Below are positions 11,236 to 47,387 of a DNA stretch of 64,000 nucleotides, piece by piece. The notes under the pieces are model-generated. The model was given only the letters and a program-made list of their open reading frames with translations, made no database searches and was not told the DNA's origin. The DNA comes from Candidatus Omnitrophota bacterium (GTDB taxonomy: Bacteria; Omnitrophota; Gorgyraeia; Gygaellales; Profunditerraquicolaceae): positions 6,448 to 70,447 of the forward strand of contig JAQUOV010000001.1 of assembly GCA_028716965.1 (NCBI GenBank), written 5' to 3'. The position numbers and the translations under genes are program-made. The number at the start of each line of letters is the position of its first letter. The stretch's first letter is position 1.

Positions 11236-11256
11236 AATATAAGTATATAAGTATAC

Positions 11257-11309
11257 AAGACGCTTTATGTATCTCTTTATATTTCTAAAGGTTACAAAAC
11301 AATTATTTT
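11257..11309. promoter_or_regulatory. Conserved upstream element E (alaS 5' region)
   Basis: AAGACGCTTTATGTATCTCTTTATATTTCTAAAGGTTACAAAACAATTATTT. In gene sense it reads TTGTTTTGTAACC-N-AGAGATACATAAAGCGTCTT. It overlaps the recX stop codon. Confidence 0.5.
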
Positions 11310-11869
11310 CTCAATACATTGCTAATTAAATCCGGAGAAAAACCCCTGCGCATCAAATAAGCATATACCCGTGCCTTTGCCTTAAGCGGCTCTATATTTT
11401 TTAGTTTAGCCAACCTTTGTTCGGCTAATTGTTTGACTATACCGGTTTCGTCGTAATCCTCTTTTGCCTGAACAAAGGCTTCTTCAATAACCTGTTTATC
11501 CAACCCCTTCTGCATCAATTCCTGCTTTATCCTTCTTAAACCAAATGGCCGCTTAAGCCGGCTGGAAACCCAACCCCTGGCAAAAACGCGGTCATCAATA
11601 AAATGTTTATCCTTTAAGAAGTTTACCGTCTCCTGGGATAGCTCTTCGGAGAAACCTTTCTGCCTTAACCTCTGCGCCAGCTCCTTTTCGCTGCGCAGGC
11701 GAAACTTAAGCAGCAGAAAAGCATATTCTTTGGCTTTTTCCGGGTTATGGCTTCGGCTATCGGATGCCGAACCATGGCCTTCTGGCTTATGGCTTCGGCT
11801 ATCGGATGCCGAACCATGGCCTTCTGGCTTATTTGGCGAGGTCAAACTTTTTACGCGCTTCTTTTTCAA
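11303..11869 (-). CDS. recX: Regulatory protein RecX, N-terminus carrying two in-frame repeat units
   Basis: RecX-like three-helix repeats ([20 protein letters not shown]...). It overlaps the recA 3' end by 41 nt. The N-terminus contains a tandem [13 protein letters not shown] x2 encoded by an exact 2x42-nt DNA repeat. Confidence 0.75.
11745..11828. repeat. Repeat family C: exact tandem 2x42-nt unit (TTATGGCTTCGGCTATCGGATGCCGAACCATGGCCTTCTGGC) inside recX
   Basis: Two identical 42-nt units seen directly. Each has an internal inverted repeat TTCGGC..GCCGAA, and each encodes [14 protein letters not shown] in the recX frame. Confidence 0.85.
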
Positions 11870-19253: not shown

Positions 19254-20540
19254 TTATTTTCGGAGAGTTGTTTTGAAGGCTTGGGTTAAGGCCGGGACAA
19301 CCTGAAACAGGTCACCTACAATTCCATAAGTGGCTAACTTGAAAATCGGCGCTTCGGGGTCTTTGTTTATGGCAATAATAATCTTTGAAGATTGCATGCC
19401 GACAAGATGCTGTATCTGTCCGGATATCCCGCAGGCAATATAGATCTTTGGAGCTACTGTCCTTCCGGTTTGCCCGACCTGATGTGAATAAGGCATCCAG
19501 CCGTTGTCTACTGCCGCGCGGCTTGAGCCGACTGCGGCTCCCAGGACATGCGCTAATTCTTCCAGTAATTTAAAATTCTCCGCTCCTCCCATACCGCGTC
19601 CGCCGGAAACAATAATATCAGCCTCGGACAAGTTCACCGTAGATTCAATCTCTTCAATTATATCCAAAAGCTTTGTGCGCGAAACATAAAGAGATCTGTC
19701 AAAACTTTCCTTTATAATCCTGCCTTTACGTTTCTTGTCCGCCGGCATAGGCGCAAACACCTTATGCCGGACTGTCGCCATCTGCGGGCGGTAATTCGGG
19801 GAAATAATTGTCGCCATGATATTGCCGCCGAAAGCCGGCCGCGTCTGTAAGAGTATCTTTTTGTCAGGTTCAATATCTAATCCCGTGCAATCTGCAGTTA
19901 AGCCGGCTTTAATATTTATCGCAACGCGTGAAATTAAAGACCTTCCGATATTTGTCGCCCCGCATAAAAGGATTTCGGGTTTATATTTTTTTACCAGCTC
20001 AACCAAAATATTAGTATATGGTTCATCCTGGAAATTCGCTAGCGTCGGGTCCTCTACCAGGTATATATTATCCGCTCCGCAAAAGATCAACTCATCCAGC
20101 TGGTCCTCTAATTTATTACCGATCAAAACCCCGCTCACCTGGCAATTTAATTTCCTGGCCAGCTCCTGGGCCTTGCCTAATAATTCATACGAAACCGACT
20201 GCACTCTCCCGTTCTTCTGCTCAATAAATACCCAAATCCCCTTATAATCTTTTATATCCGGCAGGTCGCATTTAGCTGGAGTCTTTTCTATCAAGATTGC
20301 CTTAAATTTACAGGCTTCTTTACAGGCCCCACAAAGCGTACACTTATTTAAATCAATTACCGCTTTCTTATGGCTTCGGCTATGGCTTTGGCTAAAGGAA
20401 GCCGAACCATCGCCCTCTGGCTTATCGGAGGCCGAGCCACTGCTGTCTAGCTTGTCCATTATACGGATAGCATCAAACGGGCATGCCTTTACGCAAAGCG
20501 TACAACCCGTGCACTTTTCAATAATGATCGATATAGGCAT
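19254..20540 (-). CDS. etfA: Electron transfer flavoprotein alpha subunit with N-terminal 2x[4Fe-4S] ferredoxin domain (CarE/FixB-like)
   Basis: CTGCTLCVKACPF and CTLCGACKEACKF cysteine clusters, then an Etf alpha FAD domain (…GISGQIQHLVGM…). An in-frame repeat insertion (SGSASDKPEGDGSASFSQSHSRSH) lies between the two Cys clusters. Confidence 0.85.
   Translation of the reverse strand: MPISIIIEKCTGCTLCVKACPFDAIRIMDKLDSSGSASDKPEGDGSASFSQSHSRSHKKAVIDLNKCTLCGACKEACKFKAILIEKTPAKCDLPDIKDYKGIWVFIEQKNGRVQSVSYELLGKAQELARKLNCQVSGVLIGNKLEDQLDELIFCGADNIYLVEDPTLANFQDEPYTNILVELVKKYKPEILLCGATNIGRSLISRVAINIKAGLTADCTGLDIEPDKKILLQTRPAFGGNIMATIISPNYRPQMATVRHKVFAPMPADKKRKGRIIKESFDRSLYVSRTKLLDIIEEIESTVNLSEADIIVSGGRGMGGAENFKLLEELAHVLGAAVGSSRAAVDNGWMPYSHQVGQTGRTVAPKIYIACGISGQIQHLVGMQSSKIIIAINKDPEAPIFKLATYGIVGDLFQVVPALTQAFKTTLRK
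20368..20445. repeat. Repeat family C copy inside etfA (in frame)
   Basis: CTTATGGCTTCGGCTATGGCTTTGGCTAAAGGAAGCCGAACCATCGCCCTCTGGCTTATCGGAGGCCGAGCC. Homologous to the recX and pgk copies and translated in the same frame (PEGxGSASxSxSH). Confidence 0.75.
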
Positions 20541-27082: not shown

Positions 27083-27091
27083 GTTGATTAA

Positions 27092-27143
27092 AAGACGTTT
27101 TATGTATCTCTCCATATATCTGGAGGTTACAAAACAATTATTT
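27092..27143. promoter_or_regulatory. Conserved upstream element E: AAGACGTTTTATGTATCTCT-N-GGTTACAAAACAATTATTT
   Basis: About 50 nt, nearly identical to 11257-11309 upstream of alaS. Rearranged partial copies occur at 33028-33050 and 39981-40050. Confidence 0.5.
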
Positions 27144-27665: not shown

Positions 27666-28435
27666 TTTACAACCTCGCTTGCTTTAGTTACTATCGCGCT
27701 AAAAGAATCTACCTTCAGGCTTGCTCCCCCAACCAGGGCCCCGTCCACATCCGGCCTCTCCATTAACTGCATGATATTCTCGGGTTTTACGCTTCCGCCA
27801 TACTGGATCCTAATGTTATCCGATACATCCTGGCCGTAATTTTTCTTCAATAGGTCACGGATAAATTTATGCACCTCTTGCGCCTGATCCGGGGTAGCGG
27901 TTTTACCCGTACCGATTGCCCAGACCGGCTCATAAGCAATTATTAAATTCGCTATATCGGAAACATCAACGCCTGCCAACCCATTATTGATATGGTCTTC
28001 AACAACCTTAAATGTTTTATTGGCTTCTCTTTCCTGCAGGTTCTCCCCTACGCAAACAATAGGGATAATCCCGGACTTAAGCGCGGCCTTGATTTTCTTA
28101 TTTACGGTCTCATTGCTTTCGCCAAAAAACTGCCTGCGTTCGGAATGCCCGATAATTGCGTATTGGCAGCCGGCATCCTTTATCATAAGAGGAGAAACCT
28201 CTCCGGTAAAAGCACCTTCCTCCTGCCAATAGATATCCTGCGCGCCTAAACCGATCTCTGTTTCCGTTAAAACTTCCGCTACTTCGCTTAAAGCGGTAAA
28301 TGCCGGGCACAATACCACATCCACTGCCGCAAAATCCAGCTTAAAGAATTCACGCTTTAACCCATTGGCAAGTTCAATTGCCTCCGTGATCGTCTTATAC
28401 ATCTTCCAGTTTCCGGCAATAATTGTTTTTCTCAT
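27662..28435 (-). CDS. tpiA: Triosephosphate isomerase
   Basis: AGNWKMYK..., IIGHSERR, AYEPVWAIGTG. Confidence 0.9.
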   Translation of the reverse strand: MRKTIIAGNWKMYKTITEAIELANGLKREFFKLDFAAVDVVLCPAFTALSEVAEVLTETEIGLGAQDIYWQEEGAFTGEVSPLMIKDAGCQYAIIGHSERRQFFGESNETVNKKIKAALKSGIIPIVCVGENLQEREANKTFKVVEDHINNGLAGVDVSDIANLIIAYEPVWAIGTGKTATPDQAQEVHKFIRDLLKKNYGQDVSDNIRIQYGGSVKPENIMQLMERPDVDGALVGGASLKVDSFSAIVTKASEVVK

Positions 28436-29655
28436 CTGTGGTTTTGGCTAGCGGAGGCCAAACCACGGCCCTCTGGCCTGTCCGTAAGCGCGGCAATACC
28501 GGGTAAGGTCTTACCCTCCAAAAACTCCAGGCTTGCCCCGCCCCCAGTTGAAATATGTGACATTTTATCTTCCAGTTTGAATTTTGCAATAGCCGCCGCA
28601 GTATCCCCACCGCCAATAATTGAAATGCAAGCTAACCTACCGATAAATTCAGCTAACTCTTGCGTGCCCTTGCTGAAAGCATCCATTTCAAATATCCCCA
28701 TCGGGCCGTTCCAAACAATGGTTTTGGCAGATTTTAATTTCTCTTCAAACAATTTAACCGTCTTTGGCCCGATATCCACGGCAATCTTGCCGTCAGGTAT
28801 ATTCTCGCCTGCTATTTCAACCGCAGCATTTGCATCTATATTATCAACCACTATGTTATCAATGGGCAAAAGGATCTCTTTATTCAACTGTTTGGCTTTA
28901 TCTAAAGTTGATTTTGCTAAATCCAGTTTCTCTTTTTCCAGCTTGGAGTTACCGATCTGTTTACCTTCAGCCTTAAGGAATGTATATGCCATTCCGCCGC
29001 CAACAATAATTGCGTCACACTTAGGCAGCAGGTTCTCAATAACCCCGATCTTATCCGAAACTTTGGCCCCGCCTAAAATAACTACAAAGGGCTTCTGCGG
29101 ATCCTTAACTGCGTCGCCTAAATACTTGATCTCCTTCTCTAAAAGCAGCCCTGCGGCTGATTTTAAAAAATGTGCCACCCCTTCTGTTGAGGCATGAGCG
29201 CGGTGCGCCGTGCCAAAAGCATCATTGATGAATACATCCCCTAAAGATGCAAGCTGTTTGGAAAAGTTAGCATCGTTGGCTTCTTCTTCAGGATGATATC
29301 TTAAATTCTCCAGTAAAACCACCCTTGCTTTTGAATTATCAATATCCCGTTTAATATTTACTCCTGTACAATCATCCAGGAACAGCACATCCTGCCCCAA
29401 GAGCTCTTTTAAACGTCCGGCTACCGGTTTAAGGCTGTATTTAGCAACCGGCTTTCCGTCCGGCCGGCCCAAGTGGCTCATCAACACTAATTTCTTAGCG
29501 CCATGCTCTAAGATATATTTCAAAGTAGGCAAGGTTGCCCGTATGCGCGTATCATCGGTAATATTCAGGCTGGCATCCTGCGGAACATTAAAATCCGCAC
29601 GCACCAATACCGTTTTATCTTTTAAATCAACATCTTTTAAAGTCAGCTTCGCCAT
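28432..29655 (-). CDS. pgk: Phosphoglycerate kinase with repeat-derived C-terminal extension
   Basis: MAKLTLKDVDLKDKTVLVRADFNVP... The ATG at 29655 is preferred because GGAGG lies 8 nt upstream; the track start at 29670 is a GTG. The C-terminus ...LPGIAALTDRPEGRGLASASQNHR is extended by a family C repeat unit up to the tpiA start. Confidence 0.95.
   Translation of the reverse strand: MAKLTLKDVDLKDKTVLVRADFNVPQDASLNITDDTRIRATLPTLKYILEHGAKKLVLMSHLGRPDGKPVAKYSLKPVAGRLKELLGQDVLFLDDCTGVNIKRDIDNSKARVVLLENLRYHPEEEANDANFSKQLASLGDVFINDAFGTAHRAHASTEGVAHFLKSAAGLLLEKEIKYLGDAVKDPQKPFVVILGGAKVSDKIGVIENLLPKCDAIIVGGGMAYTFLKAEGKQIGNSKLEKEKLDLAKSTLDKAKQLNKEILLPIDNIVVDNIDANAAVEIAGENIPDGKIAVDIGPKTVKLFEEKLKSAKTIVWNGPMGIFEMDAFSKGTQELAEFIGRLACISIIGGGDTAAAIAKFKLEDKMSHISTGGGASLEFLEGKTLPGIAALTDRPEGRGLASASQNHR
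28436..28478. repeat. Repeat family C copy at the pgk 3' end (in frame)
   Basis: TGGCTAGCGGAGGCCAAACCACGGCCCTCTGGCC encodes PEGRGLASASQNHR in the same frame as the recX and etfA copies. Confidence 0.7.
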
Positions 29656-30927: not shown

Positions 30928-31929
30928 TTACTTATCTTTTTCTTTTAGATACTGCGCGGCTAATTCGGGCGAGGTTGGATCAAGGTAAAAACCGGTCCCC
31001 CACTCAAAACCTGCTACTTGCGTCAGCTTAGGCATAATCTCAATATGCCAGTGGTAATACTCAACATCAGCTTCGCCGTTAATAGGCGCTGAATGAATTA
31101 TATAATTATATGACAAATTTTCAAATACTTTTTTTAGTTTCGCTAACGTGTCCTTTAAAATCTGCGCTAACGCAACAACCTCTTCTCCGGATATGTGGCA
31201 GAAATACCCGCTGTGCTGTTTAGGCATGATCATGATCTCAAACGGGAAACGCGAAACAAACGGGCAGAACGAAATAAAATACTTATTCTCCAGGATCACC
31301 CTTGCCTTATCGGAAATCTCCTGGCGGATTATATCGCAAAATATGCAGCGCTCGCGGTAATTATAATAATCGCGCGCGCCGTGGATCTCCTCCAGCGCGT
31401 TTTTCGGCACCATCGGAAGCGCTACCAGCTGCGTATGCGGATGCTCCAGGGAGGCCCCGGCTGCTGAGCCATAATTACGGAATATCATTATATATTTAAA
31501 ACGGCTGTCTTTTTTTAAGTCCGCCGCGCGCACACAACACATCTTCAGGTAACTTTCAATCTCTGCCTGCAAAAGTTCGGGGATATCTTTATTATGATAC
31601 GGGCTTTCAATTAAAACCTCATGGGCGCCAACCCCGTTTGACATATCGTAAATACCCAAACCCCTGCGGTCAAGCTCGCCTTCAATCTGCAAAGCGGGAA
31701 ATTTATTGGCTACCACGCGTACCTGCCAGCCCGGGCTGTTTGCTCCGGTAGAAGGGTCGCGAAAACAGCTTATTTCGGGAGGGGTCATAAACTCATTGCC
31801 ATAACAAAACGGGCACAAACCCCCCATAGGGATATACTGTTCATATTGAAAATCCCCGGGCTTGTTCGGGTGGTCCGTATCCACGATCACCCAACGCCCG
31901 ACAACCGGGTCCCTTCTTAATTCCGCCAT
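30928..31929 (-). CDS. Galactose-1-phosphate uridylyltransferase-like HIT family enzyme (copy 1, catalytic His-Pro-His intact)
   Basis: CPFCYGNE zinc motif, ...LEHPHTQLVALP (HPH nucleophile motif), YHWHIEIMP. Confidence 0.7.
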   Translation of the reverse strand: MAELRRDPVVGRWVIVDTDHPNKPGDFQYEQYIPMGGLCPFCYGNEFMTPPEISCFRDPSTGANSPGWQVRVVANKFPALQIEGELDRRGLGIYDMSNGVGAHEVLIESPYHNKDIPELLQAEIESYLKMCCVRAADLKKDSRFKYIMIFRNYGSAAGASLEHPHTQLVALPMVPKNALEEIHGARDYYNYRERCIFCDIIRQEISDKARVILENKYFISFCPFVSRFPFEIMIMPKQHSGYFCHISGEEVVALAQILKDTLAKLKKVFENLSYNYIIHSAPINGEADVEYYHWHIEIMPKLTQVAGFEWGTGFYLDPTSPELAAQYLKEKDK

Positions 31930-31930
31930 T

Positions 31931-32953
31931 TTAAATCTTTACCTCCCTTAAGAATTTAGTTGTTTCTTCGGGAGGGAGCGGGCAAATATAAAAACCTGTC
32001 CCCCATTCAAAACCCGCTACCTTCGTCAAACGCGGCATAATCTCAATATGCCAATGATAATCCTGGTCAATGGTTTTCCAATAGCCTACTTTCTGCCTGC
32101 GGAACGGCGCGGTATGGATCACATAATTATAATCAGGGTCATTTAGCCCTATCTTTAATTTCAAAAGTACGGTTTTAAGCACGCGCGCCAGGTTTCTCCT
32201 GGATTCCGCATCCATACAGGTATAATCGCAACAGTGTTTTTTAGGCAAGATCCAGGCCTCAAAAGGAAAGCGCGCGGCAAAAGGAGCAACCGCTACAAAA
32301 CCATCAAACTCGGCGATCACACGTTCCTTCTGTTTCAGTTCTTGCTTGATTAAATCACAGAACACGCAGCGCTCATGGTAATCGTAATATTGGCGCGATC
32401 CGGCCAGTTCCTCTTTTACGCGTTTAGGGTTAACCGGCGTAGCGATCAACTGCGAGCGCGAATGCCTTATACCACCGCCTCCGGATCCTCTACCGTAGTT
32501 TTTAAACACCAGCACATATTTAAGCCGATGGTCTTTCTCTAAATCCATTATCCTATCGGAATAACAATTGAGCACTTTGGTGATTTGCTCTTCACTCAAA
32601 TCTGCCATATTAGCAATGTGCTGATTTGTTTCAATTACGACTTCATGCGCTCCCAAACCATTCATTACATCATACATGCCATTCCCGCGCCGGTCCAGAT
32701 CACCCTCGATCCTTAAAAAAGGCGCGATACTGGGGACAACACGTAAATCCCAACCGGGGCCGTTTCGCTCAGAGTTACGCACCCGTATGGCGTAAATCTC
32801 AGGAGGGGTTTTTGATTCCCTGCCTTCGCAGAATGGGCAGGCGCTGTGGTCCTCCGGTTCTCTATGACTTTCAAACTGGTCAGGCCGGCGGGCACGCTCG
32901 GTGGCAATAATTACCCATCTACCTATAATCGGATCTTTTCTTAATTCTGGCAT
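31931..32953 (-). CDS. GalT-like HIT family paralogue (copy 2, nucleophile His replaced)
   Basis: Same architecture (CPFCEGRE, YHWHIEIMPRL), but the HPH motif reads IRHSRSQLIATP, so the His166-equivalent is Arg. Confidence 0.65.
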   Translation of the reverse strand: MPELRKDPIIGRWVIIATERARRPDQFESHREPEDHSACPFCEGRESKTPPEIYAIRVRNSERNGPGWDLRVVPSIAPFLRIEGDLDRRGNGMYDVMNGLGAHEVVIETNQHIANMADLSEEQITKVLNCYSDRIMDLEKDHRLKYVLVFKNYGRGSGGGGIRHSRSQLIATPVNPKRVKEELAGSRQYYDYHERCVFCDLIKQELKQKERVIAEFDGFVAVAPFAARFPFEAWILPKKHCCDYTCMDAESRRNLARVLKTVLLKLKIGLNDPDYNYVIHTAPFRRQKVGYWKTIDQDYHWHIEIMPRLTKVAGFEWGTGFYICPLPPEETTKFLREVKI

Positions 32954-32996
32954 AGAAATAAATTATAACAGAACTTCTGTAACTTGCAACATAAAT

Positions 32997-33011
32997 CATA
33001 GACAGTGTATG
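32997..33011. promoter_or_regulatory. Palindromic operator-like motif CATAGACAGTGTATG
   Basis: 44 nt upstream of GalT-like copy 2. Near-identical to 62397-62411 (CATAGACAGTCTATGTAATT) and related to 39946-39958. Confidence 0.45.
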
Positions 33012-33068
33012 TAATTTTATTAAAATCAGATAGTTACAAAACAAATAATTCAACCTTCCTATAATAAA

Positions 33069-34032: not shown

Positions 34033-34401
34033 TTAGTATGTAGGACTATTCTCTAAAGAGGCTATCACGGCACGTAACATCCTACCTATTTCATTAATTA
34101 AAGAATCAATTTTGTTTAAGTTTAAACGAAAACCTAAATCTTTAGCTAAAATCACATAATAATGTAGTTCACTTAAGGAGCCTTGAGAAATGTTATAAAA
34201 ATAAATCTTGTCTTTCTTTCCTCTTCTCTTAAATCCCTCGGCAATATTTGCAGGAAAGGAAACCGCCGATCTTCTCATCTGAGAAATCAATCCAAATTTT
34301 TCTTCCTCGGGGAAATATTGCGTAGCCTTATATGCTTCCAGAACCAACTCATGACTTTCTTGCCATACAGTTAAATCTCTAAAACTTTCTATCTTCTTCA
34401 T
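34033..34401 (-). CDS. Four-helix-bundle protein (23S rRNA intervening-sequence protein family)
   Basis: FRDLTVWQESHELVLEAYKATQYFPEEEKFGLISQMRRSAVSFPANIAEGF is the family signature. Confidence 0.7.
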   Translation of the reverse strand: MKKIESFRDLTVWQESHELVLEAYKATQYFPEEEKFGLISQMRRSAVSFPANIAEGFKRRGKKDKIYFYNISQGSLSELHYYVILAKDLGFRLNLNKIDSLINEIGRMLRAVIASLENSPTY

Positions 34402-34422: not shown

Positions 34423-36408
34423 TTATACCGGGTCAACATCCACAGTCACTATTATACCTGAATAATGCCCTTCTTTTAAGTGTAATCTTAGGAAACGGCT
34501 TGCCTTTTCCGCGCTTGATGCGCTGATTAATATTTGATAATAAAAATTCCCGCGTAATTTAGGCGGCTGTCCGGTACTAAGCGATAACATTTTTACGCCG
34601 GGGGCATTAACTTGGCTTAACCTCTCAAATAAATCCCGGGCAGCTTTTTTAACTGCCTCCGAGTTTATCCCCCTGAGCTTTATCAATACCATATGCCTAT
34701 AAGGCGCCAGATTCAACTGTTTGCGCTGCCTTAGCTCTTCTTTTAAGAAAATCTGCTGGTCGTTCTTGATTAACGCCTGAAAACAATGGTGACTGACATT
34801 TACGCTTTGAATGATCATTTTCTTAGAAGTCAAGCTGGCCAACCCCATAAGCAAAGCGAATGTCTTCTCCGCGGCCCTAAAGTCCACCCGGTTAAGCGAG
34901 TTATCTATCGCCATTACCCCTATTAAATCAAAACTTAAATCCTGATGCTTTATGACCGAGCTGGTTGCCACAAAAACATCCGCATCCGGATTTAGGCCCG
35001 GCTTATTTTCTCCGCCGAATATTTTTACGCGCGCCTGCGGGAAAACCTTGGCTAACTCGCTCTCCACCTTTTCTGTGCCTATCCCTGAATATTTGATGTA
35101 TCCGGTATTGCAGCTTGGGCAGATCTTAGGCACCTCCATCTTAAAGTTGCAATGGTGGCATTTTAACCTGTCCTCATCAAAATGAAATACCAGGTTAATA
35201 TTACAGCGCGGGCATTTTAAAGCCACTCCGCAATTATGGCAGGCGGCGCTGGTGGCAAAACCTTTGCGCTCAATAAACAACAGGAGCTTTCCTTTTTCAG
35301 TCAAGGTTGTATAAATTGCATCCGACAAAAACTTTGAAAATATGGGCTTATTTTTTCTATCCCTGTATGGAAGCCGGCGGGCGTCAATAACTTTGACCTG
35401 GGGGTATGCGGTTTTAGCGGGGACGACTTCAAATTTCAGTTTATCTTTCTGCCCAAGATAAAAACTCTCCAGGGAAGGAACACAGCCGCCCAAAACGGCC
35501 TTTGCGCCGCAGATCTTAGCGCGCATTAACGCAACTTGCCTGGCGTGATAATGCGGCACCTGTTCCTGCTTATAAACCTGGTTCTGCTCCTGGTCAACTA
35601 TAATCAGACCCAGATTATTTACGGGGGAAAAAATACTTGAACGCGTCCCAACAACAATAGAGCATTGCTGTTGCCTGATCCCTTCCCAAACTTTAAGCTC
35701 CTTCGGCTGCTTGCGGAAGGCCAAAGAAACCTCCGTACCTAACTCTTTTTCAATTAATTCCTTGGCCTTTTCTGCCTCCGGGATATCGCTGAATAAAATA
35801 ATCGCTGAACGCTTAAGCGCCCAAGCCTCTTTAATCTCTCTCAAATAAACCTGCATCCGGTCAAGGCCCTGGACAAAATGTACGTCATTGCCAGGCGTAA
35901 CAGGCAGAAGAAGCGACCGAGGGCGAAATGCCCGGGGGAGTGCCGGGTCCGTCCGGACGAGGCCAATCTCGTCTTCCTTGTCATCGCCAACCCAACCTCT
36001 CGCTACCTCCCTGCCTTTCCTTAATTCATCCGGAAGCGCAGTTTCAATCGCCTCCCCCCAGGAACAACAGTAATATTCCGCAAGTCCCCTGGTTAACAGC
36101 AACATTTTTTTGTCTAACACAGGCGCTGTATCAATAAGCGTTGAAATCTCTTTTATTTTCTTGATCCTTGTCTTACTACTTAAGCCGACGACATAAGCGA
36201 CCTCTTTTTTGTTGCGGAAATTCACCCAGACCCTGGCTCCCACGGATATTTTATTTGCCATATCCGGCTGGACTAAGTAATCAAAGGGGCCGTCAATGGG
36301 CAGGCCCAATACAACCTTAGCGTATAACACTGGATATCTCCCGGCAGGCAGACGGCTTGGCCGCCTGTATAACATTTTCCTTAAAACTTTCCAGCTTCTG
36401 CGGATCAT
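34423..36408 (-). CDS. priA: Primosomal protein N' (PriA) homologue with degenerate ATPase/helicase motifs and an in-frame repeat insertion
   Basis: PriA N-terminal 3'BD/WH region and the Cys4-Cys4 zinc region (CHNCGVALKCPRCN...CHHCNFKMEVPKICPSCN) are intact. Motif I reads FVQGLDRM instead of GxxGSGKT. Motif II reads DQEQ instead of DEEH. Motif III reads GCV instead of SAT. The motif VI arginines are absent. Residues 147-176 are encoded by a 90-nt family A repeat. The start is uncertain: 36408 overlaps the upstream GT28 gene, and an alternative ATG lies at 36375. Confidence 0.75.
   Translation of the reverse strand: MIRRSWKVLRKMLYRRPSRLPAGRYPVLYAKVVLGLPIDGPFDYLVQPDMANKISVGARVWVNFRNKKEVAYVVGLSSKTRIKKIKEISTLIDTAPVLDKKMLLLTRGLAEYYCCSWGEAIETALPDELRKGREVARGWVGDDKEDEIGLVRTDPALPRAFRPRSLLLPVTPGNDVHFVQGLDRMQVYLREIKEAWALKRSAIILFSDIPEAEKAKELIEKELGTEVSLAFRKQPKELKVWEGIRQQQCSIVVGTRSSIFSPVNNLGLIIVDQEQNQVYKQEQVPHYHARQVALMRAKICGAKAVLGGCVPSLESFYLGQKDKLKFEVVPAKTAYPQVKVIDARRLPYRDRKNKPIFSKFLSDAIYTTLTEKGKLLLFIERKGFATSAACHNCGVALKCPRCNINLVFHFDEDRLKCHHCNFKMEVPKICPSCNTGYIKYSGIGTEKVESELAKVFPQARVKIFGGENKPGLNPDADVFVATSSVIKHQDLSFDLIGVMAIDNSLNRVDFRAAEKTFALLMGLASLTSKKMIIQSVNVSHHCFQALIKNDQQIFLKEELRQRKQLNLAPYRHMVLIKLRGINSEAVKKAARDLFERLSQVNAPGVKMLSLSTGQPPKLRGNFYYQILISASSAEKASRFLRLHLKEGHYSGIIVTVDVDPV
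35883..35970. repeat. Repeat family A (long form) inserted in frame in priA
   Basis: CGTCATTGCCAGG...GAAGCGACCGAGGGCGAAATGCCCGGGGGAGTGCCGGGTCCGTCCGGACGAGGCCAATCTC. Collinear with the intergenic copy at 46326-46413 and encodes EIGLVRTDPALPRAFRPRSLLLPVTPGNDV. Confidence 0.75.
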
Positions 36409-37422: not shown

Positions 37423-37499
37423 AGGGACGTTTCTCAAGCCAAAGCGAGAACTGTCCCCTATATGGGGACAGTTCTCCGATTGGGCCAAGAAACGTCCCT
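37423..37499. repeat. Repeat family D: nested perfect palindrome AGGGACGTTTCT..GAGAACTGTCCCC TATA TGGGGACAGTTCTC..AGAAACGTCCCT
   Basis: Outer 12-bp and inner 13-bp perfect inverted repeats seen directly. A degenerate relative lies at 22620-22717. It sits between gmhB-like and GT28. Confidence 0.7.
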
Positions 37500-39937: not shown

Positions 39938-39945
39938 TTAATCCA

Positions 39946-39958
39946 GTAGACAGTCTAC
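39946..39958. promoter_or_regulatory. Palindromic operator-like motif GTAGACAGTCTAC
   Basis: Perfect 6-1-6 palindrome, 9 nt upstream of the degT-like start codon. Confidence 0.45.
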
Positions 39959-40056
39959 ATAACTATCTCTGCCCCTTTAAGATACAAAACAATTCTTTAA
40001 GTCCTTAAGACGTTTTATATAACTACATAATTTCCATCGGGATATAAAATAATTGT

Positions 40057-41130
40057 TTAACTTAATAATCCCGCCGCCGCATCAAACACCGCTTCAACAC
40101 TTACCTGCCTCAAACACTCCCTATCTCTTTCGCAAACCGCAAGCCTGAAATTATTATAACACGGCCGGCAATCCATATCCTGCTTTAAAACTACATGCTC
40201 GCTACCGGCAGGAAACGGCCCGTATACTTTTTCGCTCACCGGGCCGAATACTGAAATCGTCTTTACCCCCAATGCCACCGCCATATGCATCGGCCCGCCG
40301 TCATTAGTAATAACTAAATCACATTGCTTAATTATCCCCGGCAGGATTTCCAATCCTGTTTTCCCGGTGAAATTTACAGGTTTATTGCGCATAGCATGCA
40401 CGATAACCTCCGCGATCCCCTGTTCCGATTCATCGCCTAAGATCAGCACCTTTGCCTTAAGCTCATCCACCAGCCTATCCCCCGCTTGGGCAAATTTTAG
40501 TGCCGGCCAATGCTTGCAAAGAGCGTCTTTTCCCCAGCTGCCTCCTGCTCCGGGAGCAACACCAATCACCAAATCATTCTCTTCAATTCCGGATGCCGCA
40601 AGCATATTTCTTGCCTTTACTTCTCTATTTGAAGGTACAGCTAAAAATAAATCTCTTTCACAAGCTGGGATATCTAAAAATTTAAGCAACTCTAAATAAT
40701 ACTCTACCACGTGCTTATCATGATAGCCGTCTATATCCATGCGGTTGGTAAGAAACCTGCCCCTGCCCTTATAATTAAACCCGATGCGCCTGCCTATCCC
40801 AATTATTTTGGCAAATAGACTATAACGGTGGTCAAGAGAAAAATCAAGGCAAATATCAAAATGCTCTTTTTTTATCTCCCGGGCCAATTTAATCGCGCTC
40901 CATACACCCTTAAAGAACGACTCCTGGTAGATTTTCTTGAGGTCCCCGCGCGAAAGAGCAAAAACCATGTTTATTTGGGGGTTGCTTTCCAGTATCGGTT
41001 TAACCCGCAAATTCGACCAGTAGCCGATAAAGCTATCCGCATAACGCCCTTTAATCGCCTTTATCACCGGCGTAGTAAACAAGACATCCCCAATACCGAA
41101 CGGATTAATAATCAAGAATTTTTTAGTCAT
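40057..41130 (-). CDS. Glycosyltransferase family 9 (LPS heptosyltransferase-like)
   Basis: MTKKFLIINPFGIGDVLFTTPVIKAIK... The ATG at 41130 is preferred; the track start at 41154 lies inside repeat family A sequence. Confidence 0.7.
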   Translation of the reverse strand: MTKKFLIINPFGIGDVLFTTPVIKAIKGRYADSFIGYWSNLRVKPILESNPQINMVFALSRGDLKKIYQESFFKGVWSAIKLAREIKKEHFDICLDFSLDHRYSLFAKIIGIGRRIGFNYKGRGRFLTNRMDIDGYHDKHVVEYYLELLKFLDIPACERDLFLAVPSNREVKARNMLAASGIEENDLVIGVAPGAGGSWGKDALCKHWPALKFAQAGDRLVDELKAKVLILGDESEQGIAEVIVHAMRNKPVNFTGKTGLEILPGIIKQCDLVITNDGGPMHMAVALGVKTISVFGPVSEKVYGPFPAGSEHVVLKQDMDCRPCYNNFRLAVCERDRECLRQVSVEAVFDAAAGLLS

Positions 41131-41151
41131 TATAACCCGTCTTCGCAAAGA

Positions 41152-41198
41152 CATCGGCCTTCGTCATTGCGAGGGCACGAAGTGCCCGAAGCAATTTC
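41152..41198. repeat. Repeat family A (short form with 5' CATCGGCCTTC extension)
   Basis: CATCGGCCTTCGTCATTGCGAGGGCACGAAGTGCCCGAAGCAATTTC. It abuts the manC stop codon. Confidence 0.7.
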
Positions 41199-42584: not shown

Positions 42585-42619
42585 TCATTGCGAGGGCACG
42601 CAGTGCCCGAAGCAATCTC
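42585..42619. repeat. Repeat family A (short form)
   Basis: TCATTGCGAGGGCACGCAGTGCCCGAAGCAATCTC. It overlaps the stop codon of the GT9 gene 42618..43523. Confidence 0.7.
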
Positions 42620-44372: not shown

Positions 44373-45620
44373 TTACGGATTTTCTTGAGAATTTACGCCA
44401 AGACGGCTTAAGGACAAGGAAACACCTATTAAGAACCAGAATATCATCGCTACCCTTGAATTATAAAGGCTGGTTTCAGTTAAACCATTGACTAAAAAAG
44501 CAAATATGCAGGCAAGCAAGGATAACGAAGCCGCCTTCAGGTAATCGTCTTTTAATTTAAAATAAGCAATAGCCACATTCCTGAATATTAGAAACAAAAA
44601 CCAAATAAAGGCCGCCAGGCCCAATAAACCAACCTCTCCGGCCATCTGCAAATATATATTATGAGAATAGATGGTATCGGGGGTATGGGCATATTTTTCG
44701 GCGCTCTCTGTTTTATACTTTCCATAGTTCCTGGAAAAAGTATTCACTCCCACGCCAATTACCGGATGATGCTTGATCATATTGATAGTGTTACTGTAAA
44801 TGCTGATCCTGTCCTGGTTAAGCATGAACACTACCGGATTATAATTTACCTCCTTTGCCCATTTTTTTATGTCTTTGGGCATGATAAAAGGAAAGATTAA
44901 GAAAGCTGCGATCAGAACCGAAGTCAATAATCTTTTTTTACCAGCGATAGATAAAAACAAAACAGCCAGATATACAGCCAAACCTGCGCCCCGAGAAAAA
45001 GTCAAAAATATGCCCGCTAAGGCCATAATAGTCAAAAAGGACATCAATAACCTGTTTTTGCCTTTAAAATAAAGGATGGTTAAACCCGCCATCAAGGGGA
45101 TAAATGCGGCCATATATATTCCTAAAAGATTTGGATTGGGGAATGCAGCCGATGCGCGGGGTATGCCTATATTATGGTGTAAAGCGACCCTGTGTATAAA
45201 ATCATACCCAAAAATAAACTGCCAGAGCGCATCAACCGCAAGCAGGGATACCCCGCAGAAAACTGAAAAAACAATCTTCTCTATATGTTTTTTATCTTTT
45301 ATCTCTTCGCTGCATATTACAAAGATTAATAGATATTTCAACAACTTGACTATCCCCTGGATGCTTGCGCTATAGCTGACTGAATTTATAAAAGAAAACA
45401 ACGAAACAATAATAAGGCAAATGAAGCTTAAGAGGATTGTTTTATTTATGCTTATCTTTTCTTTCTTTAACAGCTTAGATATTAAAAAGGCCCCGGAGAA
45501 TAACCCAATGAAAATATTAGCTATGGCAGGAGCAATAGCCACCGAAAACGGCATAATAATTATGGACCAATAAATAATAAAATCTAAAACCCCGGTTATT
45601 TTCATGCCCCTTACCTCCAA
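44373..45620 (-). CDS. O-antigen ligase / O-antigen polymerase-like membrane protein
   Basis: About 10-12 TM, with a Wzy_C-like central loop region. Confidence 0.55.
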   Translation of the reverse strand: MEVRGMKITGVLDFIIYWSIIIMPFSVAIAPAIANIFIGLFSGAFLISKLLKKEKISINKTILLSFICLIIVSLFSFINSVSYSASIQGIVKLLKYLLIFVICSEEIKDKKHIEKIVFSVFCGVSLLAVDALWQFIFGYDFIHRVALHHNIGIPRASAAFPNPNLLGIYMAAFIPLMAGLTILYFKGKNRLLMSFLTIMALAGIFLTFSRGAGLAVYLAVLFLSIAGKKRLLTSVLIAAFLIFPFIMPKDIKKWAKEVNYNPVVFMLNQDRISIYSNTINMIKHHPVIGVGVNTFSRNYGKYKTESAEKYAHTPDTIYSHNIYLQMAGEVGLLGLAAFIWFLFLIFRNVAIAYFKLKDDYLKAASLSLLACIFAFLVNGLTETSLYNSRVAMIFWFLIGVSLSLSRLGVNSQENP

Positions 45621-46288
45621 AATCTATACTTAAACATAGTTAAAATTGCCCAAAAGGCGTCATTTACCCTGATTTTCTTACCTTCTTTATAAGAACGCGG
45701 GTGGTAATAAACCTGCAGCTCTTTAATCTTAAGTTTTTTTCGCAAAGCTTTGCAGATAATCTCAAAATCAATATCAAAACCTGTTTTCTCTAACCTAAAT
45801 GATTCATATACCTGCCTGCGCGCCAGCTTATAACAAGTAGCGCAATCATTTAATTTTGCGCCATAAATGGAATTCAGCACAAAAGTCAGGAACTTGTTGC
45901 CCGCCACATGCATTAATAACCCTTGGTGCCCTTCAAAAAAACGCGCCCCGGAAACCATATCATATTTGCCATCTCTTATTTCTTCAAACAAGCGCAGGTA
46001 ATCATTCGGGTCATATTCAAGGTCGGCGTCCTGTACGACAATGTATTCTCCGCAGGCATTATCTAAGCCGGTCAGGAAAGACGCCCCTTTGCCCCGGTTG
46101 CTGCTATGATAGATAATCTTTAAATTACCATACTGTAACTTGCTTAATATTTCCCGCGTGCCGTCAGTTGAGCAATTATCAATTACAATAATCTCCTTGT
46201 CAATATTGACGGCATGGATCTTTTCAATTATCTGCCTGATAGTCTTAGCTTCGTTATAAACTGGAACTATTACTGATAAAAGTGGCAT
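45611..46288 (-). CDS. Glycosyltransferase family 2 (DPM1-like, soluble)
   Basis: LLSVIVPVYNEAKTI...IIVIDNCSTDGT. Confidence 0.7.
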   Translation of the reverse strand: MPLLSVIVPVYNEAKTIRQIIEKIHAVNIDKEIIVIDNCSTDGTREILSKLQYGNLKIIYHSSNRGKGASFLTGLDNACGEYIVVQDADLEYDPNDYLRLFEEIRDGKYDMVSGARFFEGHQGLLMHVAGNKFLTFVLNSIYGAKLNDCATCYKLARRQVYESFRLEKTGFDIDFEIICKALRKKLKIKELQVYYHPRSYKEGKKIRVNDAFWAILTMFKYRFWR

Positions 46289-46302: not shown

Positions 46303-46413
46303 GTCATTGCGAGGGCATCGGCCTTCGTCATTGCGAGGCGCCGCAGGCCGCCGAAGCGACCGAGGGCGAAATGCCCGAGGAAGTGCCGAGCCCATCCGGG
46401 CGAGGCCAATCTC
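46303..46413. repeat. Repeat family A composite (two GTCATTGCGAGG heads plus long-form body ending CGAGGCCAATCTC)
   Basis: Shares about 70 nt with the priA intragenic copy. The spurious ORF 46270..46485 translates it as LPRAFRPRSL. Confidence 0.7.
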
Positions 46414-46415
46414 TA

Positions 46416-47387
46416 TTAAAGATGCTCTTTGTACCATTTGTATGTAATTTCTAAACCTTTTTGCAGCGGATATCCAGCCTTCCATCCTAAAATTTTCTTG
46501 GCTTTAGCGCTACAAAGATACTGCTTATCAATCTCGCCCTTTATTTTACCTTTCCCCAATATCTCAGGGGCTAACGACTTATTGCCTGAAATCCCGATGA
46601 TCTTCTTTACAAGTTTGATTACGCTAATCGGCCTATCCACGCCAAAATTAAAAGCCTCTCCAAAACCAATCTTTTTATGCAGTAAGCTTTTAGCCAAAGC
46701 AAAATACGCATTTACGATATCTTCAACAAAAACATAATCTCTTAGCGGCGTACCGTCGCTCCTTATAACCGGATGTTTGCCTCTGATAATTGCCCGGCAG
46801 GTATCCGGTACGATCCTTGAAAAATTAGAATCTCCCGGGCCATATATATTAGCGCATCTGGTAACTGCTATCGGCAGGCCATAAGTATGGGCATAAGTCC
46901 TGCTAAGGATGTCCGTGCAAGACTTAGAAGCATCATAAGGATGCAAGGCAATTAAGGGGGCATCTTCCTTATAAGGAAGCTTCTTATGCTCTCCATAAGC
47001 TTTGTCGCTGGAAGCCACAACCATCGCCTTAACTCCAAAAGCCCTGACCGCCTCAAGCATATTCCAGGTTCCTTGAATATTTGTCTTTAAAGTGCCTGCC
47101 GGAGAATTATTGGCTATTCCTACAATAGTTTGCGCAGCCATATGGAAACAAACGTCAATTTTATTGTTCTTAAATATAGTATTTATAAGCTTGCTGTTGG
47201 ATAAATCACCCTTATAAACCTTGCATTTATTGTTTAAAGCCTCAATCTTAAACAATGAAAAGCGGATCTCCTCTTTTATCAAGACAATAACTTTGGCCTT
47301 ATATGATAGCGCCCTTTTTACTAAATGGCTCCCCAAGAAGCCATTTGCCCCGGTTAAAAAAATAACTTTGTTTTTCCAAACACTCAT
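46416..47387 (-). CDS. NAD-dependent epimerase/dehydratase (SDR; CDP/UDP-sugar 4,6-dehydratase or epimerase)
   Basis: IFLTGANGFLGSHLV Rossmann motif, YDASK catalytic motif. Adjacent to rfbF. Confidence 0.75.
   Translation of the reverse strand: MSVWKNKVIFLTGANGFLGSHLVKRALSYKAKVIVLIKEEIRFSLFKIEALNNKCKVYKGDLSNSKLINTIFKNNKIDVCFHMAAQTIVGIANNSPAGTLKTNIQGTWNMLEAVRAFGVKAMVVASSDKAYGEHKKLPYKEDAPLIALHPYDASKSCTDILSRTYAHTYGLPIAVTRCANIYGPGDSNFSRIVPDTCRAIIRGKHPVIRSDGTPLRDYVFVEDIVNAYFALAKSLLHKKIGFGEAFNFGVDRPISVIKLVKKIIGISGNKSLAPEILGKGKIKGEIDKQYLCSAKAKKILGWKAGYPLQKGLEITYKWYKEHL

Follow-up and report, generated by a model that had tools for sequence, protein, structure and literature searches.

The priA locus and its product

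The window analysed here, the whole 64-kb stretch of DNA to whose numbering all coordinates refer, comes from an Omnitrophota bacterium and contains on its minus strand (34423..36408) an open reading frame (ORF) of 661 amino acids that encodes a homologue of PriA. Loci of other genomes are denoted by L-numbers and proteins by P-numbers; PriAs with canonical helicase motifs are referred to as live and those without them as dead. The assignment to PriA had been made in an initial annotation, and Pfam, NCBIfam and sequences from the PDB agree on it. Pfam places PriA_3primeBD at residues 31-126, Zn_ribbon_PriA at 399-423 and PriA_C at 569-660, the NCBIfam model TIGR00595 (priA) yields 353 bits at a cut-off of 230, and a phmmer search against PDB sequences aligns the protein to the PriAs of Klebsiella and E. 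coli with E = 1e-61. The Pfam models DEAD, ResIII and Helicase_C have no match in the window protein, unlike in the live PriAs of Omnitrophota. A megablast search of priA against a phage collection gave no match. The features of the gene are:

34423..36330 (-): priA in its likely translated form, 635 aa (PriA family matches, identity to P0001, stops in relatives, pLDDT)
36031..36318 (-): 3' DNA-binding domain, residues 31-126 (Pfam PF17764, E = 4e-26)
35878..36012 (-): hypervariable linker, residues 133-177, in place of the winged-helix domain and the Q-motif helix
35883..35970 (-): in-frame copy of repeat family A (EIGLVRTDPALPRAFRPRSLLLPVTPGND in translation), covering residues 147-175 and reaching to the first base of codon 176
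35842..35877 (-): degenerate motif I / Walker A (FVQGLDRMQVYL), with R184 at the position of E. coli K230 and D183 at that of G229
35530..35604 (-): degenerate motif II (DQEQ), followed by a conserved aromatic-rich loop (VYKQEQVPHYHAR), from the alignment
35470..35496 (-): degenerate motif III (GGCVPS for GSATPS), from the alignment
35110..35241 (-): cysteine-rich region with C390, C393, C399, C402, C417, C420, C430 and C433 (Pfam PF18319)
34816..34854 (-): remnant of motif VI (LLMGLASLTSKKM) from which the arginine finger is absent, from the alignment
34429..34704 (-): PriA C-terminal domain (Pfam PF18074, E = 5e-12)

The first 26 codons of the 661-aa ORF are probably not translated. An exact-protein look-up of the 661-aa form gave no record, because the deposited protein (P0001, from a Candidatus Omnitrophica metagenome-assembled genome, MAG), which is 635 aa long and 100% identical to the window protein, begins 26 residues downstream. 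In relatives the stretch matching these codons contains stop codons, and residues 1-23 of the long form have low pLDDT in an AlphaFold model. The gene is therefore most likely 34423..36330. With the shorter start priA overlaps the upstream MGDG-synthase gene by 14 nt, and the same overlap is seen in relatives.

Regarding the architecture expected of a PriA, the N-terminal 3' DNA-binding domain with its F-D-Y / Lys pocket is present, as are the two RecA-like lobes with the Cys4+Cys4 zinc insertion in lobe 2 and the C-terminal domain. The superfamily 2 (SF2) motifs Q, I (GxGKT), II (DEEH), III (SAT) and VI (QxxGRxGR) are all replaced, and the winged-helix domain (E. coli residues 109-181) is missing. 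The protein is therefore a PriA by descent and architecture, not by catalysis.

Lost motifs and lost segments

The motifs were read from the HMMER alignment with the PriA of Klebsiella pneumoniae (4NL4). In Walker A the sequence TGSGKT is changed to QGLDRM, with R184 occupying the position of E. coli K230. Walker B (motif II) reads DQEQ for DEEH, motif III GCV for SAT, and motif VI GLASLTS for GRAGRAG, so that the four readings given in the initial annotation are each borne out. Neither GK[ST] nor DExH/D was found anywhere in the window protein. As no canonical motif is located elsewhere, the register of the earlier alignment is not at fault. A side-by-side comparison with live PriAs further revealed that motif Ia (PEIxLTPQ) is lost and motif V altered. 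The Q-motif helix (LTxEQxxAL), which precedes motif I in live Omnitrophota PriAs, is deleted in the dead clade. The claim that every motif is degenerate is nevertheless slightly too strong: it is right for Q, I, Ia, II, III and VI, but conservation persists in the region of motif IV (RKGFA) and in the aromatic-rich loop (YKQ..P.YHAR).

According to the alignment the winged-helix domain is absent already from the live PriAs of Omnitrophota. The shortening can be followed in the number of residues from LRKG, at the end of the 3' DNA-binding domain (3'BD), to the Lys or Arg of Walker A:

PriAs with winged helix: 114-181 residues
Live Omnitrophota PriAs (winged helix absent too): 61-63 residues
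Deep-branch dead PriAs: 34-37 residues
Window protein minus the 30-aa insert: 24 residues

Occurrence of the dead form in Omnitrophota

The 120 closest proteins are without exception Omnitrophota PriAs (593-645 aa, 61-82% identity) that have dead motifs and no Pfam helicase domain. Their non-canonical 'Walker A' follows the pattern [FL][VLI]QGx[DEN]R[MLI]PVYL, in which the G and Y corresponding to G181 and Y188 of the window protein are invariant and the R corresponding to R184 occurs in 119 of the 120 sequences. Walker B reads D-Q-E-x-D (DQE or DEE for DEEH), motif III reads S-H/R-x, and the region of motif VI is devoid of arginine.

A scan of GTDB with one genome per species returned 80 loci, nearly all labelled Omnitrophota. 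GxGKT is absent from all 80 species loci, whose identity to the window protein ranges from 80% down to 34%; at the position of Walker A the deeper branches possess D-L-D-G-x-x-R-W-x-x-Y-L. We also searched representatives clustered at 50% identity exhaustively and examined the best 150. About 100 of them have the dead pattern, and complete canonical motif sets appear only from 36% identity downwards. Approximately 200 distinct sequences have an intact reading frame. A Walker A Lys-to-Arg exchange in combination with a degenerate Walker B, as expected of a pseudohelicase, is fixed across the lineage. The motif loss is old, clade-wide and arose within the phylum.

Among the representatives, a group of PriAs of 650-680 aa (P0164, P0171, P0176, P0193, P0196 and similar proteins) exhibits an intermediate grade of decay. 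Examples are a Lys kept without the P-loop glycines, DEEH kept without motif VI, and a Q helix that is degenerate and still present. P0196 is an Omnitrophota protein. These PriAs may show in which order the motifs disappeared.

Live orthologues and copy number

P0163, the canonical protein closest to that of the window, is a member of another large PriA family, with 654-699 aa and matches to DEAD, ResIII and Helicase_C; in a homology search with P0163 many members of this family are named Omnitrophota. The live PriAs P0379, from the complete 1.43-Mb genome CP070780.1, and P0281 are found in the same neighbourhood as the window gene, namely in the order HAD phosphatase, GT2, MGDG synthase, priA, fmt and two GalT genes. 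Since live and dead PriAs share a syntenic slot in different genomes, they are positional orthologues, which argues that the window gene is the priA of its genome. The presence of a live PriA at the same locus in sister Omnitrophota further argues that the loss arose inside Omnitrophota, independently of that in Deinococcus-Thermus.

No second PriA was found around the gene in the window, and the ten largest other ORFs of the 64 kb are unrelated. From these sequences a second priA copy in the host genome appears unlikely.

Retained parts, predicted fold and selection

An alignment of 45 sequences reveals which parts of the protein have not changed. F42-D43-Y44 and K86 are invariant and form part of the 3'-end pocket, by which the 3' terminus of the nascent leading strand is recognised; they align with F-D-Y of E. 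coli and Klebsiella PriA and with the pocket residues Asp17, Tyr18 and Lys61 of E. coli. The residues of this pocket in E. coli PriA, and the role of the aromatic-rich loop in DNA contact, have been described (PMC5778457). The aromatic-rich loop itself (Y-K-Q...P-H-Y, YKQ.Q.PHY), all eight zinc cysteines and R184 are also invariant. The conserved remainder thus seems to consist of the parts predicted to touch DNA or partners, and not ATP.

Between close species the pairwise dN/dS was 0.09-0.19, over the full length of the gene as well as within the dead lobe 1. Purifying selection acts on the gene, which is not a pseudogene. The AlphaFold model, built on the 45-sequence alignment, has a mean pLDDT of 75 and approximately 90 in lobe 1, and its best Foldseek matches are the PriA structures 8FAK, 6DCR (the winged-helix deletion of E. 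coli PriA) and 4NL4.

The linker between the DNA-binding domain and the core

Between ELRKGK and the strand leading to the old motif I lies a linker of approximately 10-50 aa whose sequence is variable. With pLDDT below 50 for residues 141-172 it is predicted to be disordered and outside the RecA-like fold. In the coding DNA of this linker inverted repeats with 12-29 matched bp occur in 17 species (14 bp or more in 16 of the 17), and at most about 10 bp are matched in deep-branch controls; the deeper branches have plain linkers of 24-30 aa and no hairpin. The linkers of some relatives read like translated palindromes (GDAPIF...KIGASP, GTVSIF...RKIETVP, GDGSLF...EKENRP, KWGQIYFS..GKINLTPF), and others like translations of 24-nt tandem units such as IDPTPINVKIDPTPI or of an '...ARND' module. 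Copies matching the linker DNA occur outside priA, both in the genome concerned and in others. Hairpins were counted as perfect 12-bp arms, with runs of N excluded, giving the following numbers per kb:

priA linker: 2.03
Rest of priA: 0.027
Flanking 836 kb: 0.144

The density in the linker is 75 times that in the remainder of priA. The families occupying the linker have a patchy distribution over the PriA tree, with sister species unlike each other: L003 has family A and the near-identical L004 the ARND type, while L001 and L014 (family A) contrast with L022 and L063 (hairpin), respectively. Taken together, the hairpin densities and the turnover of families mean that the linker behaves like intergenic DNA on which only the frame is imposed. 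The same kind of hairpin that fills the linker in other species occurs in the window just upstream of the MGDG-synthase/priA operon:

37423..37499 (no strand assigned): nested palindromic element of the GGGACAGTTCTC type

In five of the 80 species (L028, L034, L046, L065, L071) priA is split into two ORFs exactly at the linker. The ORF of the 3'BD and that of the core are in different frames, with plausible ATG, GTG or TTG restarts; in L046 a GGAGG precedes the GTG restart. The related loci L065 and L071 share the split, and a dN/dS of 0.15 indicates that purifying selection persists there. The linker is a landing pad for dispersed repeats and a natural fission point.

Repeat family A

The linker of the window gene is occupied by a copy of repeat family A, of which the window holds two full and two partial copies. 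Besides the one in priA these are:

46326..46413 (-): second full copy, in the same orientation as the priA copy, in the gap between the epimerase and GT2 genes
41137..41195, also 42585-42619 (no strand assigned): stand-alone right-hand ('...CTCGCAATGACG') module

It had been noted initially that immediately upstream of the dead P-loop there is a full-length, in-frame repeat, paired with an intergenic copy. This is confirmed, the segments 35883-35970 and 46326-46413 being 85% identical over 88 nt. The neighbours of the intergenic copy, the epimerase gene (46416-47387) and the GT2 gene (45611-46288), are on the same strand. In priA the insert stops two residues short of the beta-strand that leads to the old Walker A. 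A comparison of sister genomes for the insert, which had been suggested, shows it to be absent from most relatives, but it is not private to the window gene: family A occupies the same priA site in at least seven other species (L001, L002/5, L003, L014, L018, L081). Unrelated repeats are found at this site in further species.

Family A is a mosaic of a left module of approximately 62 nt and a right '...CTCGCAATGACG' module of approximately 34 nt. The left module at 46353-46413 is 100% identical to positions 14000-14061 of L015, and the PriAs are only about 65% identical, which implies either a very strong constraint or a recent horizontal spread. A 22-mer from the core of family A matched 40 metagenome stretches, of which a single Hainich groundwater sample (H43) contributed about 19. 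Most of these have a coverage of approximately 45x, and as this coverage is shared the H43 copies are probably derived from one genome. The metagenome copies are mostly intergenic and mostly located in short stop-free spans, so that the many dispersed copies expected of repetitive extragenic palindromic (REP) sequences or MITEs (transposable elements of the miniature inverted-repeat type) are indeed found. The H43 subfamily has 17-nt terminal inverted repeats (CGTCATTCCGGCGAAAG...CTTTCGCCGGAATGACG), and the ends of the window subfamily share only ATTG(G)C. No duplication of flanking bases (target-site duplication) was seen around the copies.

In aligned copies the CACTTCCTCGGGCATTTCGCCCTCGGTCGC segment is invariant and is preceded by a covarying hairpin. 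In this core hairpin 1, four of nine pairs are changed on both sides, as expected of a conserved secondary structure. The covariation amounts to 16 cells versus 6.2 in shuffles; none of 500 shuffles reached the observed value, and slid controls gave 0-1. The whole 88-nt repeat, folded as RNA from either strand, has no better energy than shuffled sequences (z +0.7 to -1.35), and a search of the whole window with Rfam returned nothing at the gathering threshold, apart from which a chance match (E = 6) lay at the second copy.

Genes similar to PyrK (L109) and to FolC / Mur ligases (L091) as well as an epimerase gene (L104) also contain family A in frame, and in L119 a copy fuses two GT9 (heptosyltransferase) genes. 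Together with priA in at least eight species, unrelated genes thus harbour the repeat without their frame being broken, as is known for the Rickettsia palindromic elements (RPEs). The element of which the 88-nt repeat is a copy is mosaic, dispersed and REP/MITE-like.

Other features of the window

Between priA and fmt a gene at 34033-34401 (-) encodes a 122-aa '23S rRNA-intervening sequence protein' (PF05635, a four-helix bundle) with a weaker bAvd-like match. As priA is followed directly or nearly directly by fmt in L001, L002, L123 and L125, this gene looks like a local insertion. Two adjacent paralogous genes similar to galactose-1-phosphate uridylyltransferase are located at 30928-31929 and 31931-32953 (-), and the direct-repeat family D3 (98 nt, 30964-31061 / 31967-32064) is a product of this pair. 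The tandem GalT-like pair is also found 3' of fmt in relatives, both with dead and with live priA.

Two further repeat families were observed. A 55-nt direct repeat ending in ...GGTTACAAAACAATTATTT is present in five copies (11254-11308, 27089-27143, 32996-33050, 39944-39998, 40004-40058) that are 62-87% identical to the reference copy, at least one of them a short way downstream of fmt; the repeat possibly serves as a shared promoter, terminator or regulatory motif. A 42-nt family (TTCCGGGTTATGGCTTCGGCTATCGGATGCCGAACCATGGCC) with an internal GGCTTCGGC/GCCGAACC palindrome occurs as two tandem copies at 11738-11821 and dispersed at 20373-20414 and 28429-28470, and is a further dispersed element of the genome.

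The content of the window is of the housekeeping kind, with AlaRS, SMC, TrpE, ETF, a sugar-nucleotide/glycosyltransferase cluster and three B12-radical-SAM genes. Out of 61 picked ORFs 57 are on the minus strand, and the GC skew stays below zero over the whole window (about -0.1 to -0.3), consistent with strongly co-oriented genes on a single replichore.

Discussion

The window gene is, as we judge with reasonable though not full confidence, the chromosomal priA orthologue and encodes a PriA pseudohelicase that would be unable to bind or hydrolyse ATP, with the repeat being a passenger in its linker. Such a protein would still recognise abandoned forks and D-loops, and it could act as a passive platform for the recruitment of the replicative helicase, as in D. 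radiodurans, but would not itself remodel the lagging-strand arm. The 88-nt repeat landed in the unconstrained linker that joins the 3'-binding domain and the core, a place where in related species other palindromic or tandem repeats show a rapid turnover and where the gene of some species is split.

A survey of 100 genera in 18 phyla reported the helicase motifs of PriA to be conserved and named Deinococcus-Thermus alone as a notable exception (PMC4504706). There, Walker A carries a Lys-to-Arg exchange and Walker B is degenerate (Lopper, Boone & Morrow 2015, PMC4504706); the PriA of D. radiodurans has no ATPase or helicase activity, and it binds single-stranded DNA, forks and DnaB (PMC4504706). 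The Omnitrophota proteins are similar in both exchanges, in their lineage-wide occurrence and in the DNA-binding architecture that is kept, and for them too a scaffold role in the reloading of the replisome is presumed. They differ in belonging to another phylum and in a degeneration that goes further, the Q-motif helix having been deleted, motifs Ia, III and VI lost as well and the winged helix being absent. Omnitrophota thus apparently represent a second, independent and more extreme case of a PriA pseudohelicase. In full-text searches we found no paper that links Omnitrophota with PriA motifs.

A further parallel is provided by E. coli. Its K230R mutant (priA300) is without ATPase and helicase activity and supports restart via PriB, not via PriC (PMC5778457), and R184 can be regarded as the natural equivalent of this exchange. 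The winged helix of E. coli PriA is loosely tethered, and the protein split at residues 154/157 is almost fully functional (PMC5778457); the winged-helix deletion protein 6DCR is among the best fold matches of our model, and the five split species resemble the two-piece protein. While priA300 and 6DCR are laboratory alleles of an intact enzyme, the changes reported here are natural, combined and ancient. The initial proposal of a helicase-dead PriA kept for primosome loading is well supported by dead motifs that are fixed clade-wide, by the low dN/dS, by invariant parts predicted to recognise DNA and by the precedent of D. radiodurans.

Some points weigh against this interpretation. The loss of ATPase activity, the binding of forks and the recruitment of DnaB are all inferred from the sequences. 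The invariant arginine at the position of K230 and the conserved acidic residue before it suggest a constraint on the old nucleotide pocket that a pure scaffold leaves unaccounted for. The view on copy number covers the 64-kb window and 10-kb flanks of relatives, and two MAGs contain two different dead priA genes each (L065 and L075 in JBAZOC01, L031 and L081 in JAZDEW01). In both the sequences are on separate contigs of which the second is short, so the doubling is probably due to binning contamination or a mixture of strains. Finally, the trees were obtained by neighbour-joining on BLOSUM distances, which makes the monophyly of the dead clade and the count of independent repeat gains only approximate.

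The arginine and the neighbouring D/E/N183 could be understood if the protein had taken over a new role, for example as a structure-specific DNA-binding scaffold in repair or recombination, or if it used nucleotides via a non-canonical site; indeed, E. coli PriA has been proposed to possess a second, weaker site for nucleotides (PMC5778457). We regard this as unlikely, although it survives better than the other alternatives. All fork-recognition parts are kept, the Deinococcus precedent retains binding to forks and DnaB, and with the Q motif and motifs I, II, III and VI gone little is left that could form a nucleotide site.

An alternative that concerns the linker is that its hairpins and repeats are functional, be it as a translation-pausing RNA structure, as an attenuator or as a processing site that yields two polypeptides. 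Perfect or near-perfect inverted repeats located at exactly the linker in 17 species, with a density at least that of intergenic DNA, would fit such a function, as would the two halves encoded separately in five species and the covarying core hairpin 1. However, the linker sequences belong to dispersed families that occur genome-wide and mostly between genes, and family, length and structure vary between sister species. The deeper branches manage with plain linkers free of hairpins, and family A as a whole forms no strong hairpin. A function of this kind therefore appears rather improbable to us, a little more so than a new role of the protein.

That the gene is decaying as a pseudogene or is a paralogue made redundant by an intact priA elsewhere in the genome, which does the work, is very unlikely. 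Live PriAs do occur within Omnitrophota, yet they and the dead forms fill one syntenic slot in different genomes, as orthologues would. Purifying selection, an intact frame in so many distinct sequences and the invariance of functional residues outside the ATP site argue against decay, and no second PriA was seen among the window ORFs examined, which comprise the surroundings of the gene and the ten largest others. The notion that the insertion beside the P-loop broke the ATPase and the remaining motifs decayed later, which enlarges on a possibility raised in the initial annotation and is suggested by an insert that ends two residues before the strand into the old Walker A, can be dismissed: the same dead Walker A (xxQGxxRxxVYL, in deeper branches DLDGxxRWxxYL) is shared by every relative, among them hundreds that lack this repeat, the repeat is patchy on the tree and gives way to others in sister species, its place is a hypervariable linker outside the fold that is predicted to be disordered, and an ancient, clade-wide loss in a group most of whose members lack the repeat cannot stem from the insert. 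We infer from this that the repeat is a passenger which the gene tolerates and that it had no part in the inactivation.

In-frame repeats within genes have been reported for the RPEs of Rickettsia (reviewed in PMC10969869). Like these, family A is a short dispersed repeat with an open frame that occurs between genes as well as in frame in tolerated regions of unrelated housekeeping genes. It differs in its unrelated sequence and in a core of approximately 60 nt with two small hairpins, nested in a shorter '...CGTCATTGCGAG/GCAATCTC' module; furthermore, one subfamily of family A has terminal inverted repeats of 17 nt, and no transposase was identified.

With regard to a pseudohelicase of the PriA type in this phylum, we lean, by a narrow degree, towards the wider proposal that a large, species-rich branch of Omnitrophota restarts replication with a pure fork-recognition scaffold devoid of ATP site, Q motif and winged helix, the two modules of which are joined by quasi-intergenic DNA that genome-wide palindromic repeats have colonised again and again and that some species have resolved into two genes. 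With its linker, priA is a clear case in nature of an essential gene in which recurrent in-frame insertion of dispersed repeats, and even fission, are tolerated, and the natural fission matches the laboratory result that the two-piece E. coli PriA works. A practical aspect relates to annotation: such proteins are at present called 'primosomal protein N'' without a warning that helicase function is impossible.

Almost all bacteria keep the helicase motifs of PriA even though the activity is dispensable in laboratory E. coli, and pseudohelicases manage without it. Omnitrophota offer a much larger natural case than Deinococcus-Thermus, with deeper degeneration. As live and dead orthologues exist at one locus in one phylum, comparative genomics could seek a compensating factor, for which another helicase, the type of loader, genome size and lifestyle are candidates. 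If the interpretation is true, the phylum would represent a natural paired comparison for what makes the helicase activity of PriA dispensable.

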